Of a stretch of 24,387 nucleotides of DNA, positions 8,164-24,387 are shown one piece after another. The notes below the pieces were generated by a model. The model saw only the letters and a program-made list of their open reading frames with translations. It ran no database searches and was not told where the DNA came from. The stretch is from the IMG/VR virus record IMGVR_UViG_3300017648_000016, positions 1-24,387 of that record; one strand, given 5' to 3'. Position 1 is the stretch's first letter. Every line of letters begins with the position of its first letter. The position numbers were made by a program, and so were the translations under genes. The stretch comes from a virus. Its lineage: Duplodnaviria > Caudoviricetes.

Positions 8164-8871
8164 TTAGGAAGTAAGTCTTGCTGAATTGTCTGTAGCTGAA
8201 GACCCTCCCACATTAACTGTCATACTGTTGTTGCCTGATTGCACACTAACTTGCGGACCTTGCTCTGCAGTTCCTTCAGAAGGAATTGGGTTCGATGCAG
8301 GAGAAGCTGTACGAACACCAGACATAACTTGGTCAGCATAAGTTCTTGCTAAGCCTTCGCTGCTAGATCCTGTGCCGTCGTTTAGATATTCAATATCCGT
8401 TGCAACGAACTGATACGTATTCTCTGTATAGATATCATTAACAGACATTGTCTGTCCTTCATTAATAATCCGAACACCGTAGAGTGCAAGTCTTGCTGTT
8501 TCGCCATATTCATTGGCAAAGCTTACTGTGATATTAAATGGAGGCATCTCATCCATTAGGAAATGATACTTCTCTAATCCGGAAGTTTTAGATGCTGTTT
8601 CCATTAGCTCGTAAGCGAAGTGTTTATTAAATACAGCAAATATAAGTGAGCCTGCAATTGTACGAGGCCCAAACACATAATCTTTCGCATTCGCATTGCC
8701 AACAGAACGGACAGGAAACTTATCCATATGAATCGAATAGGTCAGCGTTTGTAATGAACCTATTACACGATTAAACTTTGTTCCATCTGGAAATACTGAA
8801 TCTATTGAGACAACCATGTCACATCCAGAGAAGCTGATGTTTTGACCGGTGTATTTACTTGCCATGCTCAT
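8164..8871 (-). CDS. Tail tube-like protein, paralog 2, with low-complexity C-terminal extension
   Basis: Shares FSGCD, IGSLQxxTYS, GxRxIAG, DExPPF and SFANEYG motifs with 8969..9598. The ATG at 8871 is better spaced from the GGAG RBS than the GTG at 8880. Confidence 0.75.
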   Translation of the reverse strand: MSMASKYTGQNISFSGCDMVVSIDSVFPDGTKFNRVIGSLQTLTYSIHMDKFPVRSVGNANAKDYVFGPRTIAGSLIFAVFNKHFAYELMETASKTSGLEKYHFLMDEMPPFNITVSFANEYGETARLALYGVRIINEGQTMSVNDIYTENTYQFVATDIEYLNDGTGSSSEGLARTYADQVMSGVRTASPASNPIPSEGTAEQGPQVSVQSGNNSMTVNVGGSSATDNSARLTS

Positions 8872-8895
8872 ATTTATCACGCTCCGTTCATGACC

Positions 8896-8940
8896 TAATA
8901 AAAAAAGGAGAAAGGCTCTGAACCCTTCTCCTTTTTATTA
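8896..8940 (-). terminator. Rho-independent terminator after the major tail tube gene (potentially bidirectional)
   Basis: Minus strand reads TAATAAAAAGGAGAAGGG-TTCAGAG-CCTTTCTCCTTTTTTTATTA. This is a long stem followed by a U-tract, with A/T tracts on both sides. Confidence 0.85.
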
Positions 8941-8968
8941 CCTGACGTACAAGCTATATCAACGAATC

Positions 8969-9598
8969 TTATTCTTTGTCGCCAACAGAACCATCTTCGT
9001 TGATTTGCTTCATGTAGTCTACTTTTCTAGCAACGAAAGTACAAGCTTTCTCAGTAGTGACAGAGTCAATAGAGAATCCAGTTCCTTCGTTTAGAATTTC
9101 AACTCCATAGATTACTAGAACAGCCTTTTGGCCATATTCGTTAGCGAATGAGATCGTTACATCGAATGGAGGTAGTTCGTCAGCGTATTGTGCTTCACCT
9201 TCTTGAAGGATTGCGTTAGCTGCTTGAATACCTTGGCCGGAAACTGCACCAGTCATCAGCTGATCCCATTCATTGATTGTCATAGGATCTGTTGCAGTGT
9301 TTTGAGAACCATTAGAAGCACCGATACGGTTTACAGTTCCATTCTGAGCTTTTAATGCTGTGATTAAAGCATCACGGTCAAACACTGTGAATACCATAGT
9401 ACCAGCGATACCACGTTTACCTCTGGAGAAGCTTCGTGGTTCAGCTGAGCCCATTGTATAGACTGGAGCTTTCTCACGGCTAACAGAATAAGTGATAGCT
9501 TGTAAGGAACCAATTACTTGAGAACCGAACGTCGCTACAATATCACAACCAGAGAAAGTGGTATAAGTCTTTGTATATTCAGACGCAGAAGTTGCCAT
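8969..9598 (-). CDS. Major tail tube protein
   Basis: 209 aa directly after the sheath gene, with strong RBS AAAGGAGTG. The pattern IGSLQAITYSVSREKAPVYTMGS...RGKRGIAGTMVF is tube-like. It is followed by a terminator. Confidence 0.85.
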   Translation of the reverse strand: MATSASEYTKTYTTFSGCDIVATFGSQVIGSLQAITYSVSREKAPVYTMGSAEPRSFSRGKRGIAGTMVFTVFDRDALITALKAQNGTVNRIGASNGSQNTATDPMTINEWDQLMTGAVSGQGIQAANAILQEGEAQYADELPPFDVTISFANEYGQKAVLVIYGVEILNEGTGFSIDSVTTEKACTFVARKVDYMKQINEDGSVGDKE

Positions 9599-9655: not shown

Positions 9656-12550
9656 TTAAAGCTCGTCCTTAACAGAGATACGGTTACGCACTTCGCGAAT
9701 CTCGTAGATCGGAACGATCTTGTAATCAATGTCGATATAGCTGAACTTCATGACACGAGGGTCAATCACCATATTGAATTGATAGTCTTCGATCAGTACG
9801 TCCTTGATCTTGTCAAGGTTAGACTTAACAGCTGTTTGCATAGAGTTGCGGTTAGCAGCGTGGTTCTGCTTACCAATGAACGGTTCAACCGCTTCACGAA
9901 TTAACTCTTCAACTGCTCCGATCACTCTTGTTACAGAGAGTCTGCGGAATGGAGATTCTGCAGGAGCTTGAGTGATACCATCCGTTACAACCAATCCTCT
10001 TGTGTAGGACTGACGGATTGTGATGATACCCTTCTGAGTTAAGCGAGTTAACTGGAAGTTCGTTAATTCAAACATTGTTGAATCAAGTTCGATCGGTTGG
10101 CTAGTAGATGACTGATCAAGTGGAAGTCTAGAAACCATTCCGGCATAACCAGCAGCACCGTTAGATACGTAGCGATAACCGTCTGACATATTCAAGTAGT
10201 ATTGTGAGAACACTACTGAAATGTTCTTACCGATTGGGTACGGCATGTTGTTGCGGTCTAGCATGTTTCGACCTTGTGCATTCTTCGCATAGAGATCTAA
10301 CTCAAGGTTGAGAATCTCTTCAACGCGATTTGCTAAGCTGTTCAAGCTTAGGTCAGACATACGGTTAAGACCGATAACCCCGTGAGTAGGAGCTGTCTTC
10401 AATGAAGTGTAAGTAGCGTGCTGTGCTAACTGACGAGCGAAGTTATCGTTCGTTTTGTAAGGAACGTACTTTGTGTAATCGTAAGAAGCCTTGCGGTCTT
10501 CTAACAACACTGTTTCTACTCCAAACGCAGATGCTGCAGCTTCAGACACATATTCATCTTTCATCTCATAACCAGTAGTAGTTAGAGAGAAATCGAATTG
10601 AGCTCTTAAGCTCTCATGGTTGTTTAGGTATTCAACAAACTCTTCAACTGTAGTTCCATCTAGCAATGCAGAGGAAATAACAATTGGGTTTGCCTCGAAG
10701 TGATTGTATTGAGCGTAAACAGTTGTTTGCTCAACATTCTCACCAAGCATAGACTCGATGTCACCGATTGGTGAAACATGAGCATCAGTACCACCCAAGA
10801 ATTTAAGAGCATACACGCGTCCGTTGTTCTCAGCAAGAACATAGTTCTTACCATGGAACTGTAATGGAGATCCATCAGTAGGAGCAGTGAACTCTAGCTT
10901 CTCGAATACTGTGCCGTCTGGAGTATCTACGCCTTGGAACATCACGTTGTCAACTAGAATAAGTTGTCCGATCTGACGTGAGTTGTTTAATACTTCATAG
11001 CGGTTTTCATTGAAGCGTTTAAGGATACCCTTACCATCTTCGTTGAAGGTCATTGCCAACGTTCCGTTTGGTACGTTTACGTTTAGCAACTCTTCCTCAG
11101 TTGCATTAGGAACAACTCGGAAAACAACGTCATCGTAGATTTCATCTACTGGAGCTTCAAGAGCACCATCTACGATTGCATTCACTTTGAAGCTGAAAGC
11201 TTTTGGAGTGAAGTTCGTAGCCGGATCGATCTTCGGAGTTGCCTTGATTAATCCGTTTAGAATGTCTACTGATACAGGAGTTCCAACCAAGAAGTCTTTT
11301 GGACGAGGAAGTTTTCCTGTGATTTGTGTGTCTGCATTAGCAGCTGTTAAAACACGATATCTTGTGTTTAGGTTTTCAAGCATAGAGTAGATTCCATCAC
11401 CTAAAGCCAAGACGCGGTTTGCATCACTTACTGGAGTTTCCTTAACTTTAGGAGTTAACTCTGCACCAGTTGTTGCATCAACACGACGCTCTGCTCTAGC
11501 AGTAATAGCGAATCCAGATCCAAGACGTTGGTAGATATCGAATTTAGAAATGTTTACTTCTTCGTAATCTACTTTGTCTTTTGCAAATGCACGATCAGCA
11601 ACGCCTAGAGTTTCAAGGAAATCGAAATCTTGGAATGTGAAGATTTCAACTGTACGCAAGATGTCGCGTAGCTCTTCCATGTTCTCAGCAAAGATTGGCA
11701 GCGGCTGGCTAACATCTGTGTTAAGAACTAAGCGTTTGAATACAACTTCACTGAAGGATTCAAATGGTTTATCTGCATCAGAAGTTACAAGCTTGTAATC
11801 AATCTCTGTTGCTGTTGGGCAAAGGCTGCGATCACGACCAATGAAGTAAACACCAGGATGCATAGCACCAATTGGTAGATTCATAGCTTCAATGGATGTG
11901 TTTGTTACATCAGCACCGTTTTCATCTACGATTGTTAATCGTAATACGTTGTTGTATGCATGCTCATTTACGATACGAAGTAGATCAGTCAGCATAGAAT
12001 CCTTTGTTAAACCATAGTCAAGGTTTAAACGGATTTCTGTTACAAGAACTGAATTTTCGCTTTCTACAAGACCTTGCATCTTTTCAACGATTGTTGCTCT
12101 GTCAGCAGGTTTGTAAAGGCGGATACGTTCATCTCCAGTAGTGTCGTCATATACCATGAAGAAGTCTTTTGCTTCATTCGTTGGATATACGCCGGATACG
12201 TGAAGTTGAAGGTTGGTATCTAATGCAAGGTTGAATTTCTTTTCAACTTGTTTACCAGAGATACGAACACCATAGATTGTACGGCTTCCTCTTTGATAAG
12301 CATCTTCAATACCGGAAACAAGAGTTGCTTCTTGTTTAGTCTTGGCATCATAAGCTTTTCCAAAAACATATCGACCATGCTCTGGGCTATAGATCTCAAC
12401 AGGAACTCCCACTGGACCATTGAAAGCAGTACCGATTACAAGCACAGAGTCAGTAGTTCCAAACAAGCTGGAATCATAACCATAGCTGTAGTCAGACTCT
12501 ACTTCAGTCAAAGCGCCTGGTAGAAATGTTTGGCTATCGATTAATGACAT
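9656..12550 (-). CDS. Contractile tail sheath protein (964 aa)
   Basis: N-terminal LPG...LVIGTAFNGPVGVPV motif. C-terminal sheath domain AAGYAGMVSRL...LTQKGI...VTDGIT...RRLSVTRV...EPFIGK...IVPIYEIREV. It lies directly upstream of the tube gene. Confidence 0.92.
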   Translation of the reverse strand: MSLIDSQTFLPGALTEVESDYSYGYDSSLFGTTDSVLVIGTAFNGPVGVPVEIYSPEHGRYVFGKAYDAKTKQEATLVSGIEDAYQRGSRTIYGVRISGKQVEKKFNLALDTNLQLHVSGVYPTNEAKDFFMVYDDTTGDERIRLYKPADRATIVEKMQGLVESENSVLVTEIRLNLDYGLTKDSMLTDLLRIVNEHAYNNVLRLTIVDENGADVTNTSIEAMNLPIGAMHPGVYFIGRDRSLCPTATEIDYKLVTSDADKPFESFSEVVFKRLVLNTDVSQPLPIFAENMEELRDILRTVEIFTFQDFDFLETLGVADRAFAKDKVDYEEVNISKFDIYQRLGSGFAITARAERRVDATTGAELTPKVKETPVSDANRVLALGDGIYSMLENLNTRYRVLTAANADTQITGKLPRPKDFLVGTPVSVDILNGLIKATPKIDPATNFTPKAFSFKVNAIVDGALEAPVDEIYDDVVFRVVPNATEEELLNVNVPNGTLAMTFNEDGKGILKRFNENRYEVLNNSRQIGQLILVDNVMFQGVDTPDGTVFEKLEFTAPTDGSPLQFHGKNYVLAENNGRVYALKFLGGTDAHVSPIGDIESMLGENVEQTTVYAQYNHFEANPIVISSALLDGTTVEEFVEYLNNHESLRAQFDFSLTTTGYEMKDEYVSEAAASAFGVETVLLEDRKASYDYTKYVPYKTNDNFARQLAQHATYTSLKTAPTHGVIGLNRMSDLSLNSLANRVEEILNLELDLYAKNAQGRNMLDRNNMPYPIGKNISVVFSQYYLNMSDGYRYVSNGAAGYAGMVSRLPLDQSSTSQPIELDSTMFELTNFQLTRLTQKGIITIRQSYTRGLVVTDGITQAPAESPFRRLSVTRVIGAVEELIREAVEPFIGKQNHAANRNSMQTAVKSNLDKIKDVLIEDYQFNMVIDPRVMKFSYIDIDYKIVPIYEIREVRNRISVKDEL

Positions 12551-13246: not shown

Positions 13247-14284
13247 CTATCCCTCCACAACAACAGAGAATCTCTCTGTAGAATTTACTGGCCATATATC
13301 GATATCACATAGAACCACTCCCGCTCCAGGAACGTCTTTGACGAATCGAATATTCTTGATTTGATAGGATCGTAGAATCCAATTCACCATCGGATCGAAG
13401 TAATCTATCAAAGCCTTTTCGATTCTGAGCTTCTGGTAAGCAGTCATGTTTCGTCCTTTGAATCGAGACAGATCCAGATTACGACGGACATACTTTGCAA
13501 TCCGGTCAATCATGACAATTTTCTCTGGCTCTACTTTGCTATTAAAATTCAATAGGTTTTCTACAGTTACGCCGGATAAGTAATTGTCTTTGAAGTACAC
13601 CATTTCGTGCTCTCCAATATCGACAGCATCGATATCGAATATGACTGGTCCTAGATTGCCTGTGACTGGATACAATCCAAGATCGGTTACACATAGAATG
13701 CTGGCTAGCACCACATTGGCAAACTGATAGTTTTCTAGGTTGTTAGAAACAAAGCACAAGTTCTTGCCATTCATGTTGGCGGTCATGCCATTCTTAAACT
13801 GTGTAACGATGGTCTTCATCTCTTCCAGGTAAGCATCCATATCTTCGTACAGCGAAGCATGATTGTCTGTCACGACAAACGTTGACCGGTTATAGGATGA
13901 CAGCTTCTCTAGGAAGTGGTGATAGTAACCAACCTTCTTGTTGTTACGTGTTGCATCGAAGAATGCATCACCAAGATAGAGACTGGCCGGCGCCACATAA
14001 GCAAAGTCATAATGTCTCAATACATTGGCGATCTCGATATAGTCGTATGTATTTTTGACATTAATCAAGAAAATGTGTGGCACGCCAAAACTCTTTGCAA
14101 TCTTAAAAGCTTCTGTTAGTTCGGATTCACCGTAAGCAGCAGTTACTGCCTCGATCGTCGTATAGTAAACAATCTTATTAACTGCCTGGTTGGTAGCTCC
14201 CCTTCCCATTAGGAGAAGGGTCTGATTCATGTCTACCGTCTTAATAACTTCAGTCAGACTTTGGTTTGTCATTACATCAATCAT
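13247..14284 (-). CDS. Small, divergent tail sheath paralog (345 aa)
   Basis: N-terminal LLLMGRGATN...AYGESELTEAF...GVPHIFLINV and C-terminal IDRIAKYVRR...FKGRN...RIEKALIDYF...IDIWPVNSTERF both parallel the termini of the 964-aa sheath. Confidence 0.65.
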   Translation of the reverse strand: MIDVMTNQSLTEVIKTVDMNQTLLLMGRGATNQAVNKIVYYTTIEAVTAAYGESELTEAFKIAKSFGVPHIFLINVKNTYDYIEIANVLRHYDFAYVAPASLYLGDAFFDATRNNKKVGYYHHFLEKLSSYNRSTFVVTDNHASLYEDMDAYLEEMKTIVTQFKNGMTANMNGKNLCFVSNNLENYQFANVVLASILCVTDLGLYPVTGNLGPVIFDIDAVDIGEHEMVYFKDNYLSGVTVENLLNFNSKVEPEKIVMIDRIAKYVRRNLDLSRFKGRNMTAYQKLRIEKALIDYFDPMVNWILRSYQIKNIRFVKDVPGAGVVLCDIDIWPVNSTERFSVVVEG

Positions 14285-14734
14285 TTAGCTACCTCCCTTG
14301 ACGATCCGGTTGAAGTTCTTCATAAACGCTGTACTATGAACTTTCTTGATATTGCAAAAGGCTTTGTAGTAAACCATCTCTTTGTTGGTTGTCTTTTTCC
14401 TTTCTAATCGATGGACCATAAATGCGTCATCACCGTCCACTATGATGTTGTCTTCAAAGACGGGATACTTTGCATCGATATAGAATATTGTCATTGTTGC
14501 TGATTCACTGACTCCGGATATTCTGAATGATCCGGAAGAATCAGAGGAAGCTCCCCGCATCTTTTTGATTTTGATCTTTCTCCCTGTCCCTAAGCATTTA
14601 GGACAGAGAGGATCAGCTTGCTTTGTTGTGAAGTCGATGCAAGTACACTTCACCTTGAAGTCTTGCTGAACAATAAAAAAATCATAGGAGAACTTCTCAA
14701 TGATTCGCTTGATACCATTATTGAACTCTCTCAT
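14285..14734 (-). CDS. Head closure / neck protein with zinc-ribbon insert
   Basis: 149 aa in the head-tail joining position. It contains CTC...CPKCLGTG followed by a beta-rich, SPP1 gp16-like region. It has an ATGA overlap with the upstream gene. Confidence 0.6.
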   Translation of the reverse strand: MREFNNGIKRIIEKFSYDFFIVQQDFKVKCTCIDFTTKQADPLCPKCLGTGRKIKIKKMRGASSDSSGSFRISGVSESATMTIFYIDAKYPVFEDNIIVDGDDAFMVHRLERKKTTNKEMVYYKAFCNIKKVHSTAFMKNFNRIVKGGS

Positions 14735-15411
14735 GATCTACCCACATCCCTTGAGAATCCCATTCCTGAGAAGGTCGTTCCATAAGGATGGCCAGGTACA
14801 TAACGGCCAACTTTCCGTAATCCATATGGAGATCCTGGTGTGCTTCTCGCACCTCTAACTGCAGATGCAGGAGCTACGCGTCCTTCGAATCCATTACCTC
14901 TCATATGCTCCACCCACTTATCTACTTCTGTCTTTAGAACATCGAGCAGATCTTTGATGGCAGGGAATGTTGAGGAGTTTTCGAAACTGATATCACCGAG
15001 TGTTCCTTTTGTTCCGCCTTCTGCAGATCTTTCCACGTAGAACTTCATCAAGCTATCATAAGCAGCTTTATGCTTCACGTATTGAAAGACCTCGAAAGGC
15101 ACGTTGTCATCCGTATAAGATTCTTTCTTTACATACTCTGCAAACAGAGATGCTTCCCGAATATAGTAAAGCGTCTTTTCGTCAGGGATATCATAGCTAT
15201 CCACTAGCGAATGAACAGCTTCTAAGGAGCAATAGGACGGAGTCAACCTTGTTGTTGTTTTTATCCGGAGGTCGTCGATCGTCTTGTTTTTATTAAGAGC
15301 TTTGACTTTCTTAATTCGAATCTCGTAAACCGAATTGTCTTTCACTCCATTCTTCGGAGTGATTTCAATAAAGTTATCAAAGACTTTAAATGTGTGCTCG
15401 ACTCTTTCCAT
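14731..15411 (-). CDS. Head-tail adaptor (SPP1 gp15/HK97 gp6-like) with N-terminal half Ig-like domain
   Basis: The helical region YCSLEAV...YIREAS...QYVKHKAAY...KGTLGDISFE is typical of adaptors. It has a strong RBS (AAGGAGG) and a TAATG overlap with the upstream gene. Confidence 0.6.
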   Translation of the reverse strand: MERVEHTFKVFDNFIEITPKNGVKDNSVYEIRIKKVKALNKNKTIDDLRIKTTTRLTPSYCSLEAVHSLVDSYDIPDEKTLYYIREASLFAEYVKKESYTDDNVPFEVFQYVKHKAAYDSLMKFYVERSAEGGTKGTLGDISFENSSTFPAIKDLLDVLKTEVDKWVEHMRGNGFEGRVAPASAVRGARSTPGSPYGLRKVGRYVPGHPYGTTFSGMGFSRDVGRS

Positions 15412-16199
15412 TAGATCGACCTCCTTATGACGACAATCTCCTGAATAGAATCCACGTCGATGTCTTCATCTAATTCTATGAGAAAGCTATTAGGAGTCTC
15501 TCCATTAGCGGGAGCGCTAACCACAATCAGCTCTTCTTCATAAATAGGCCCATCATCTTCTCCATCTTCATCATAGATTGGACCAGGAACACTGTTTTCC
15601 TCACTGACGATAAATGTGACAACGTCACTCCAAGGACCGTATTGGCCATCCCTCTGAACCCGAACCCGCACATAGTATTGACCCACCGGTAAACCAGATA
15701 ACGTGATGCTATCTCTGTCTTGAACCTCAGTTCTTCTGACGACATTATAGAAGGCATTCTCCGTTGCAATTTCCAGATAATATGAACGAACCAGATTCTC
15801 TGATGTGATAGCCTGAGCTTCTTTCCAGGAGATCACTAGCTCAGTAATCTCTTCGAAATCAGCAGGACTTGTCACTTCAGCCACAGAGGTAATCTCACTA
15901 GGGAAGACTACATTTCTCTGTAAAGAATCTGGTAGTTCGTCATCAACTATGGAAGTTATACCTTTTTGGACTTTGATTAGGTATTCAGTATTTGGAATAG
16001 GCCAGTCTACTAATTCTAGTTCAACGACATTTCGGTTAACGTTGAATCGAAAATCAACGAGATCGGATGTCGCCTTCTCAACTAGAACTAGCGAGTCCAG
16101 TGTGACCGTGTCTTCGTTTACATCAAGAGAGAATTCCAGTGTTACTTTTTTCTCTAGCAAACTTGTAGAGATACTAAGCACATTGAACTCTTGATACAT
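15411..16199 (-). CDS. Virion protein with bacterial Ig-like and fibronectin type III domains
   Basis: FN3 signature ISW...YYLEIA...ITLSGLPVGQYYVRVRV...GPWSD. The N-terminal ~100 aa are Big_5-like. The ATG at 16199 is better spaced from RBS AAAGGGG than the GTG at 16208. Confidence 0.8.
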   Translation of the reverse strand: MYQEFNVLSISTSLLEKKVTLEFSLDVNEDTVTLDSLVLVEKATSDLVDFRFNVNRNVVELELVDWPIPNTEYLIKVQKGITSIVDDELPDSLQRNVVFPSEITSVAEVTSPADFEEITELVISWKEAQAITSENLVRSYYLEIATENAFYNVVRRTEVQDRDSITLSGLPVGQYYVRVRVQRDGQYGPWSDVVTFIVSEENSVPGPIYDEDGEDDGPIYEEELIVVSAPANGETPNSFLIELDEDIDVDSIQEIVVIRRSI

Positions 16200-16228
16200 C
16201 CTGAACACGCCCCTTTGACTGACAGGTA

Positions 16229-16732
16229 TTATTCTTCAGAAGCTTCTTCTTTTTTAGCAGAAGCTTTTTTGTTAGCAGCTTTTTTAGCAGGAGCTTTCTT
16301 TTCAGAAGCTTCCGCTTTTTCAGCTTCAGCAGCAGCTTTAGCTTCCTCCTCAGCTTTAGCTTTTGCCTCCGCTTCTGCCTTAGCTTTTGCTTCGGCTTCT
16401 TCTTTAGCTTTCGCCTCTGCTTCAGCCTTTGCCTTTGCATCAGCTTCTTCTTTGGCTTTCGCCTCTGCCTCCGCTTTTGCTTTAGCCTCTTCAGCTTTCT
16501 TTATATTGTCAGCATCGACGGAAGCTTTGACCTTACCTGCTGCAGCCTCAAGATCAAGTGATCCTGAAGCAAGCAGGAGCCGGCCAGAGCGCACAGCTCG
16601 TTTAATGTTGGTAGTATTCATACCAGCTAGAACATGACGCTCTGGATTAGCAATGGTTAAGTGGATACGAGTCAATTCGTCGTAAAATCCTACTTCCCCC
16701 GGTGCTAGTCGAATTTTCCCTAGAACCTTCAT
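16229..16732 (-). CDS. Hypothetical protein with small N-terminal domain and Glu/Ala/Lys repeat tail
   Basis: 167 aa with RBS AAAGGAGAGGG, directly downstream of the major capsid gene. Confidence 0.75.
   Translation of the reverse strand: MKVLGKIRLAPGEVGFYDELTRIHLTIANPERHVLAGMNTTNIKRAVRSGRLLLASGSLDLEAAAGKVKASVDADNIKKAEEAKAKAEAEAKAKEEADAKAKAEAEAKAKEEAEAKAKAEAEAKAKAEEEAKAAAEAEKAEASEKKAPAKKAANKKASAKKEEASEE
16322..16489 (-). repeat. Seven imperfect 24-bp coding repeats (EAKAK[A/E]EA)
   Basis: The translation reads EAKAKAEA EAKAKEEA DAKAKAEA EAKAKEEA EAKAKAEA EAKAKAEE EAKAAAEA. The DNA copies differ at synonymous sites. Confidence 0.85.
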
Positions 16733-23190: not shown

Positions 23191-24387
23191 TTAAAAGCGA
23201 ACAGCTCCAATGAAGTGTCCGTCTACATAGGTTTTGTACTTACCGCTGCCGAAGTCTTTTTGAGAAATACCGCCTACTCCAGAGGAGTTATCGATCATGA
23301 GATTGCCGCCGATGTAAAGGGCAACGTGAGCGACTCTGTTGCTCTGGCCATTAGGCAAGGTGATGTTATGTCCATGACTTCCAGATGGATCGAAGAACAT
23401 TAAGTCACCTGGTTGCATTTGACTTCGATCAGTGAAGAAGTGACCTTTTTTATTTGTCACTTGCTGAGCTGTTGTCCATCCTATATCGCCTTTGCCGGCA
23501 TCAAGGAATATCCGTCTAGTGAAGCTAGAACAGTCTCCGTATTTCTTGAGTTCCATATCTGAACCACGAAGCTCCATGCTATAGACAACTGGATTCGATG
23601 TTCCCACACCTCTGGTCTGTACCCACTTCTGAGCAAGCTCAACAACCTTAGCGTTGTCGCCAGTCGGAACAACAGTAGAAGTGGATGGCGCACTGTTTGC
23701 ATAGGAGTTGCCATTTGGATTTCTCCCAGCCGTTTTGTATCGCTCCAACCGTTCCTTCTCTTTTTTCGAAGCTTCCTTACGATTCTTAGAGATTCGTTCC
23801 TCTCGCTCTTTCTTTACTTTCTCAGCAAGCTCTTCTTCTTCGCGAACGCCTTTGTAGATGTCAACGCCTTCTTTGTTTAGCTTGGCTTTTCCCTTTGCTT
23901 CTTTCACGAATGTCTGAAGCACTTCATCTACTAATATTACTGAGCTATTTAAGTATTTATAGAAGTTGTACATATTTTGTTGATACTTTTGATCGTATTG
24001 AAGACGATTGCCTCTCAACATATCATTGCTGTTCGTGTCCAGATAGTTCTTGCTAGAGTTATAATTCTCTTCGTAATAACGTCTTCTCAGCTCGTGAGAG
24101 ATTTTGTTAGACCGAAGATGGTAGATTGTTTGGTCGATGTTATAGATCTTCTGGAAGAACTTCGACATTTGTCTGCGTCTAATTTGACTCCGAACAATCT
24201 CGTCACCCACATGCTTTAAATCATCTGGCAGTAGATCAGCAGGAACGCTGTATCTATAGAACAAGTCTTTGTATGTTGGGAATCCACCCGCTTCCGCTAT
24301 GTACAATAGCTCTCGCATATACTTCTCAATAACCAGTCGTAGCTTATTGATGAAATCTTTGTAGATCTCAGTCTTGTCGACGGAGAA
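23191..24387 (-). CDS. Protein with helical N-terminal region and C-terminal NlpC/P60 peptidase domain (5' partial)
   Basis: GDCSSF (catalytic Cys), QPGDLMFF and HVALYIG (catalytic His). The frame stays open upstream of 24318 to the window edge (FSVDKTEIYKDFINKLRLVIEKYM...), so the true start is probably outside the window. Confidence 0.88.
   Translation of the reverse strand, partial: FSVDKTEIYKDFINKLRLVIEKYMRELLYIAEAGGFPTYKDLFYRYSVPADLLPDDLKHVGDEIVRSQIRRRQMSKFFQKIYNIDQTIYHLRSNKISHELRRRYYEENYNSSKNYLDTNSNDMLRGNRLQYDQKYQQNMYNFYKYLNSSVILVDEVLQTFVKEAKGKAKLNKEGVDIYKGVREEEELAEKVKKEREERISKNRKEASKKEKERLERYKTAGRNPNGNSYANSAPSTSTVVPTGDNAKVVELAQKWVQTRGVGTSNPVVYSMELRGSDMELKKYGDCSSFTRRIFLDAGKGDIGWTTAQQVTNKKGHFFTDRSQMQPGDLMFFDPSGSHGHNITLPNGQSNRVAHVALYIGGNLMIDNSSGVGGISQKDFGSGKYKTYVDGHFIGAVRF

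Follow-up and report, generated by a model that had tools for sequence, protein, structure and literature searches.

We identified two adjacent phage genes whose products each carry part of one Ig-like domain, and we propose that the two parts rebuild a single β-sandwich in trans, clipping a Big_5-FN3 arm onto a predicted neck adaptor ring. We put the probability of this reading at roughly 0.78. Profile alignments and the structure model of a naturally fused relative show that the halves complement each other exactly and without overlap, together making up a domain that fused relatives carry in one piece. Every readable locus retains both halves, no recoding signal is conserved, and complementation in trans is well, though indirectly, supported by these sequence comparisons.

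The window, by which we mean the whole 24,387-base IMG/VR record, bears on its minus strand the genes for the portal, prohead protease, major capsid protein, arm and adaptor proteins, neck proteins, and sheath and probable tube genes; together these form a structural operon like that of myophage 0305phi8-36. A comparison with 50,697 phage records showed relatives of the major capsid protein in Moorella phage MTATph1 (52% identity), in Bacillus phages 0305phi8-36, KLEB27-3, WH1, and Edson (38 to 39%, with 38% for 0305phi8-36), and in Acinetobacter phage ME3 (27%). Contigs of 235 to 238 kb in Bacillus atrophaeus and B. spizizenii assemblies encode proteins 73 to 84% identical to both the arm and the adaptor gene products, suggesting that the host is likely a Bacillus. 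A close jumbo-phage relative (P0006, P0038) is present in several isolate assemblies of these two species and may be a plasmid-like prophage or reflect a carrier state. Elsewhere in the operon, a gene for an NlpC/P60 (CHAP-like) peptidoglycan hydrolase (23191-24318, minus strand) lies immediately upstream of the portal gene, and the 964-aa tail sheath (9656-12550, minus strand) has a long central region outside its PHROG matches. A shorter gene (13247-14284, minus strand) occupies the place where 0305phi8-36 and MTATph1 have an annotated sheath paralog, and two tube-like paralogs are found at 8164-9598. The features of the two genes under study are as follows.

15411..16208, minus strand: arm protein gene; 265 aa from a GTG start, or 262 aa from the ATG at 16199, the start of most homologs
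15900..16193, minus strand: intact Big_5 Ig-like domain (PF13205), arm residues ~6-103, with strands taken from the model of a fused relative
15606..15896, minus strand: FN3-like domain (PF00041), arm residues ~105-201
15537..15605, minus strand: acidic, Pro-rich linker, arm residues ~202-224, of variable length among relatives
15414..15536, minus strand: first half of the split Ig-like domain, arm residues 225-265 (41 aa), three predicted strands
15420..15426, minus strand: Shine-Dalgarno sequence AAGGAGG, overlapping the codons of a conserved Arg-Arg that ends the third strand
15409..15413, minus strand: TAATG stop/start overlap (TAA 15413-15411, ATG 15411-15409), a position that lies in a hairpin turn when the domain is intact
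14731..15411, minus strand: adaptor gene, 226 aa; residues 184-226 are modeled with low confidence
15232..15411, minus strand: second half of the split Ig-like domain, adaptor residues 1-60, four predicted strands
14860..15240, minus strand: predicted head-to-tail adaptor core, residues 58-184, a helical bundle plus β-hairpin according to the model and fold search

The arm protein thus consists of a Big_5 domain, an FN3-like domain, an acidic linker, and the three strands that open a second Big_5-like domain. Pfam model PF13205 scores 27.4 bits, above its curated cutoff of 23.6; PF00041 scores 24.7 bits, just below its cutoff of 25 (E value of 2.7e-5), and FN3 chains top the Foldseek matches to the model of a fused relative. 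The linker is modeled at a pLDDT of <50 in a fused relative (P0113, residues 202-210) and exceeds 150 residues in the arm protein of one locus (L016). Directly upstream of the arm gene, positions 16229-16732 (minus strand) encode a 167-aa protein whose N-terminal domain is conserved and whose long tail is an Ala/Lys/Glu repeat; in L001 and L016 the arm gene likewise follows a gene for a similar protein.

The AlphaFold2 model of the downstream protein has four N-terminal strands (pLDDT of 81 to 84 when modeled alone), a helical bundle, and a β-hairpin. When adaptor residues 58-184 were compared with 48161 chains by VIA-align, ranks 1 to 25 were all phage neck, connector, or tail entries, with Z scores of 7.0 to 8.9, modest values for a helical bundle; they include the phage 812 neck, T4 gp13/gp14, the Mu neck subunit, and HK97 gp6. 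The helical core and β-hairpin are shared with HK97 gp6, the Mu neck subunit, T4 gp13, and the phage 812 adaptor. Other searches were less informative: Foldseek with the adaptor model gave weak matches only, none at an E value of ≤0.001, Pfam and PHROGs offered no useful family, and none of the top 60 of 80 hits from a profile search of PDB sequences was a phage neck protein. The gene lies between those for the major capsid protein and for the tail terminator and sheath. Together, fold and gene order support the adaptor identity proposed in the initial annotation and point to a head-to-tail adaptor of the HK97 gp6/SPP1 gp15 type. The C-terminal part of the adaptor is also matched by 15 stretches of P0084 (E value of 4e-45), a protein of 7571 aa that we left out of all analyses. 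Some adaptors of 312 to 359 aa have a different N-terminal domain before the half-domain (P0171, P0179, P0152, P0167, P0215).

Could the split be an artifact of sequencing or assembly? Fused homologs do exist, and our comparison rests on contigs, but we consider an error that breaks a single gene practically negligible. Contigs from four runs in four studies show no indel across positions 15000-15800; contigs rather than raw reads were compared, and X5 and X6 are possibly the source of the record. X7 differs by 10 substitutions, X8 spans the junction with one contig, and an identical adaptor protein is encoded on three contigs; no RNA holder of the sequence was listed. Among 34 homologs of the upstream protein, the 33 that were aligned (one partial sequence was excluded) all end at the same column as the window protein. 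Three locus scans yielded 48 loci, from which we dropped a spurious one (L029), one that was cut off (L030), one on a frameshifted contig (L049), and one with an aberrant end (L057). In all 44 readable loci, the window's own record included, the cut falls at one common column and the remaining half is encoded downstream; since the scans used patterns from split proteins, 44/44 is not the split rate of the family. A single-sequence locus search with the arm protein returned nothing, whereas the alignment search did find loci. The independent homologs refute an error, and the proposal that the split evolved is upheld.

The original case for an evolved fission had pointed to the TAATG overlap and the strong ribosome-binding site. 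On their own these have no weight, because touching or overlapping genes are common in the operon (the gap is ≤0 at 6 of 17 gene junctions); it is the homologs that carry the case. The AAGGAGG motif sits 8 nt from the adaptor start, and the conserved Arg-Arg end of the arm protein may partly reflect this overlapping Shine-Dalgarno sequence. Basic residues also end the third strand in several close fused relatives. Since Arg-Arg codons can spell a Shine-Dalgarno sequence, we speculate that the turn after the third strand may be an easy place to cut.

All parts occur in one chain in cultured Bacillus phages. Proteins of vB_BceM_WH1 (gp106), Edson, and vB_BauM_KLEB27-3 (gp21) have the order Big_5-(FN3 or linker)-Big_5-adaptor at the same gene position; unlike in the window, a single gene encodes them and the domain is intact, and they are annotated as “structural protein” or “hypothetical.” Using the adaptor as a query against 1.84 billion representatives, we obtained 156 matches, the best 150 of which were examined. 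Among the matches listed, 41 of 146 new proteins are 390 to 600 aa long; by eye, 38 of these 41 keep a second Ig-like domain, and the other 3 have a linker instead. Of 10 fused clusters that we checked, 7 contain several members. No longer (fused) adaptor homologs had turned up in a word-index search, which we attribute to limited sensitivity, because the full profile search recovered at least 41 proteins of 390 to 600 aa.

To represent the intact domain, we took the second Ig-like domain from each of 21 relatives in which the genes are naturally fused and built a 104-position HMM solely from these; the window's halves were not joined for the comparison. Arm residues 225-263 align to HMM positions 3-41 (28.0 bits) and adaptor residues 2-60 to positions 46-104 (56.2 bits), without overlap. 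None of 1,000 shuffled sequences per half reached the real score, the best being 7.6 for the arm half and 12.4 for the adaptor half. Each half alone matched no Pfam family at an E value of ≤1. The same HMM also matches the intact first domain of the arm protein (residues 18-95, positions 16-91), which bears out the resemblance that had first drawn attention to the locus. Fused protein P0113 was modeled by AlphaFold2 with a mean pLDDT of 88.8, and of 93 to 97 over the second Ig-like domain, from an alignment that held split proteins as separate rows. Its strands span residues 220-222, 233-237, and 247-255, followed by 258-269, 272-277, 287-297, and 303-312; in the alignment, the cut of the window proteins falls in the turn between the third and fourth strands (255-258). 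In four fused proteins that score above the Big_5 (PF13205) cutoff as whole proteins, the best stretch is the second domain (P0095, 228-294; P0116, 242-314; P0175, 228-325; P0199, 217-322). The Big_5 match is weak in fused P0113 and P0127, and 3 of 20 fused proteins scanned gave no Big_5 match. The fused-only profile and the model of P0113 thus show both the Ig-like identity and the complementarity claimed at the outset.

The pattern extends to other split proteins. All 26 arm halves and 25 adaptor halves tested align to the fused-only HMM, the arm halves ending at positions 34-41 (26/26) and the adaptor halves starting at positions 45-55 (25/25). Columns that are ≥75% hydrophobic in the fused domains stay hydrophobic in the split ones (11/11 in arm halves, 14/15 in adaptor halves), compared with 0/27 and 4/44 of the other columns, a count biased toward agreement because the sequences were aligned to the fused HMM. 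Each of four large records (206 to 241 kb) contains one arm half and one adaptor half; other matches are the intact first domain or weak. Extra cargo proteins bearing an arm half were also sought in these four records, which yielded just two weak internal matches (E values of 0.002 to 0.004); one of these was inspected and rejected because of its position in the middle of an ORF.

We propose that the arm and adaptor would be translated separately, each from its own start and in coupled amounts, and that the three C-terminal strands of the arm would pack against the four N-terminal strands of the adaptor. Up to 12 Big_5-FN3 arms might then hang on the outside of the neck adaptor ring. In the usual s-type Ig topology, each chain would contribute strands to both sheets; the joint would therefore comprise the whole hydrophobic core and be close to obligate. 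What the arm does is the weakest step, and we see about even odds that it binds surfaces or anchors neck fibers.

An unlikely alternative is that the halves have separate roles, with the adaptor strands pairing with neighboring adaptors or another neck protein while the arm terminus binds elsewhere or is a tolerated relic. Because the adaptor strands were modeled alone at a pLDDT of 81 to 84, the adaptor half may be partly stable or self-paired in the ring, where 12 copies would have a high local concentration, and the arm halves of distant loci diverge (17 to 73% identity). Against this, arm halves keep all 11 core hydrophobic columns and end alike in 26 of 26 cases, the cut is shifted jointly in both 0305phi8-36 genes, and fused and split forms are close sisters, so the halves must stay compatible. 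We consider it still more improbable that the two halves complement each other only transiently, the arm acting as an assembly chaperone or placeholder and not as a lasting part of the virion. The neck decoration proteins of phage 812 are proposed as possible chaperones in the part of that report dealing with them (PMC12886913), and the available virion proteomics come from a phage with a different cut site; however, mass spectrometry is noted to have placed gp127 of 0305phi8-36 in the virion, and fused relatives carry arm and adaptor in one covalent chain. We retain lasting complementation in trans as the preferred reading.

The initial annotation had offered −1 recoding at the TAATG, yielding a fusion protein, as its alternative. 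The 44 loci represent 33 distinct junctions, with gaps of −4 (1 junction), −1 (18), 0 (3), +1 (2), +2 (4), +3 (2), +4 (2), and 311 nt (1). Although −1 is the commonest relative frame (24/33) and natural fusions exist, the frame is 0 in 5 and +1 in 4 of the junctions; a slippery heptamer of the form X XXY YYZ was found near the stop in none of the 33, and 23 have at least five of six matches to AGGAGG. In MTATph1, which is cut after the same strand, the genes are separated by 15 nt with an in-frame TAG followed by TAA. An unrelated 101-aa ORF is inserted between the half-domain genes of L016 (L016:4173-4478), where both halves are kept, and the 0305phi8-36 genes are far apart (see below). A heptamer and a conserved −1 frame, as in programmed −1 frameshifting of the tail-chaperone G/GT type, are thus absent from these junctions. 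As a mechanism of the family, −1 recoding is unsupported, and we regard frameshifting or readthrough at the TAATG as highly improbable, although an individual phage might still recode at a low level.

Phage 0305phi8-36 belongs to the same lineage and has the same parts, a Big_5-FN3-half protein and a half-adaptor, but is cut two strands later. By BLAST, the C terminus of gp127 (L006:662-1657) aligns to fused P0209 from residue 328 to ~403 and gp135 (L006:12921-13787) from residue 404 onward; because the two alignments abut, the 0305phi8-36 cut lies ahead of the final two strands. A distance of 11.3 kb, with seven genes that include curly-fiber candidates, separates the two genes, and gp135 has an extra N-terminal domain, apparently common to P0186, P0206, P0169, P0197, P0166, and P0195. 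GenBank record EF583821 notes gp127 and gp135 as virion proteins by mass spectrometry; this phage is only distantly related to that of the window and has its domain cut elsewhere. Hardies et al. (2007; PMC2147016) describe orfs 126 to 134 as an indel module with curly-fiber candidates and place a junction inside orf135; their passages around orf135 make no mention of a split domain. Eleven more adaptors start, by eye, with only the last two strands. The HMM of close relatives detected neither the 0305phi8-36 nor the ME3 halves, the former being resolved later through BLAST to P0209. Acinetobacter phage ME3 gp24-gp26 (L009:10663-12703) is possibly a distant version with a small gene between the parts and a third cut; ME3 gp26 had no match to the adaptor HMM, and a gp24/gp26 split is not supported by the HMMs.

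To place these genes among known systems, we compared them with other composite domains. In lactococcal phage Tuc2009, a 25-residue β-hairpin of BppU completes a sheet of the BppA C-terminal domain; the resulting titin-like composite domain, shown by crystallography, hangs an accessory module on the virion, according to the part of the report that treats this joint (PMC4742702). Like BppU-BppA, the arm and adaptor would form one β-sandwich from two virion proteins, an association predicted here from sequence. Because of BppU-BppA, a two-chain sandwich on a virion is already a known principle, which limits the surprise. The Tuc2009 joint, in contrast, is in the baseplate and involves one donated hairpin, whereas here the site is the neck adaptor and three plus four strands form a Big_5-like domain; intact fused relatives and two cut sites are found here and not for BppU-BppA, and we saw no sequence relationship between the systems. 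The two cases also differ in that the split here is near-even.

In the donor-strand complementation of chaperone-usher pili, another chain supplies what an incomplete Ig-like fold lacks. There, one strand is donated, the subunits polymerize, and a chaperone is needed; here, the domain is split near its middle (three plus four strands), and the halves are encoded by different genes, once per genome in four of four records. The phage 812 adaptor is a dodecamer that has an outer β-sandwich domain and is surrounded by unresolved whisker density; as described in the sections on the adaptor, that sandwich lies within the adaptor chain itself and is not shared with a second protein (PMC12886913). A literature search conducted largely outside subscription journals found no paper on this split. 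For a jumbo-phage lineage that is structurally unstudied, our reading proposes a function for two genes labeled “hypothetical” and a way in which appendages would attach to the neck.

To follow how the split and fused states arose, we inferred a quick tree from 137 adaptor domains (16 of 153 were dropped as fragments or because of odd starts). A label for the first cut requires 16 changes on this tree; starred branches force at least nine of them, and a sister relationship to split proteins has 97 to 100% support for several fused ones. A single clade for 43 split rows was rejected (p-AU of 7e-5) in a set of 62 rows that was chosen after the tree had been seen and comprises 56 of the 74 rows of the window's clade plus 6 fused outgroup rows. 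The alignment is short, proteins were labeled split or fused according to their predicted length, the tree does not fix the direction of change, and at least one “split” row (P0202, on an 892-bp contig) looks like a fragment. Thus, switching between the split and fused states has likely happened repeatedly, as judged from this tree, and the count is soft. “Fission,” the term used when the split was first noted, is on the whole the likely direction, although repeated re-fusion is also compatible with the tree.

The locus offers a clean natural example of a domain whose core is cut but which selection still maintains. Because fused and split states alternate on the tree and two cut sites occur, one can test here how gene fission gives rise to an obligate interface, and cultured phages are available for the fused state and for each of the two split states. 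More tentatively, and as something that we would bet against, the split Big_5 domain may be a reversible, evolvable neck-adaptor clip across the jumbo-myophage lineage, with two cut loops and many switches between one gene and two. A freed arm might be added after DNA packaging, modules such as the curly-fiber genes of 0305phi8-36 might be inserted, and the pair might be a natural high-affinity split-domain tag; a self-assembling pair of 41 and 60 residues, if true, could be useful for protein coupling or phage display.

Among the proteins that depart from both states, P0210 is an adaptor that begins with a whole Ig-like domain and is sister to fused P0209; it possibly reflects a third cut, before the domain, although it is known from a single contig and is possibly a fragment. 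In fused arm-adaptor proteins P0144, P0191, and P0198, a plain linker replaces the second Ig-like domain. Since some fused relatives make do with a plain linker, the split domain likely serves as a mere coupling.
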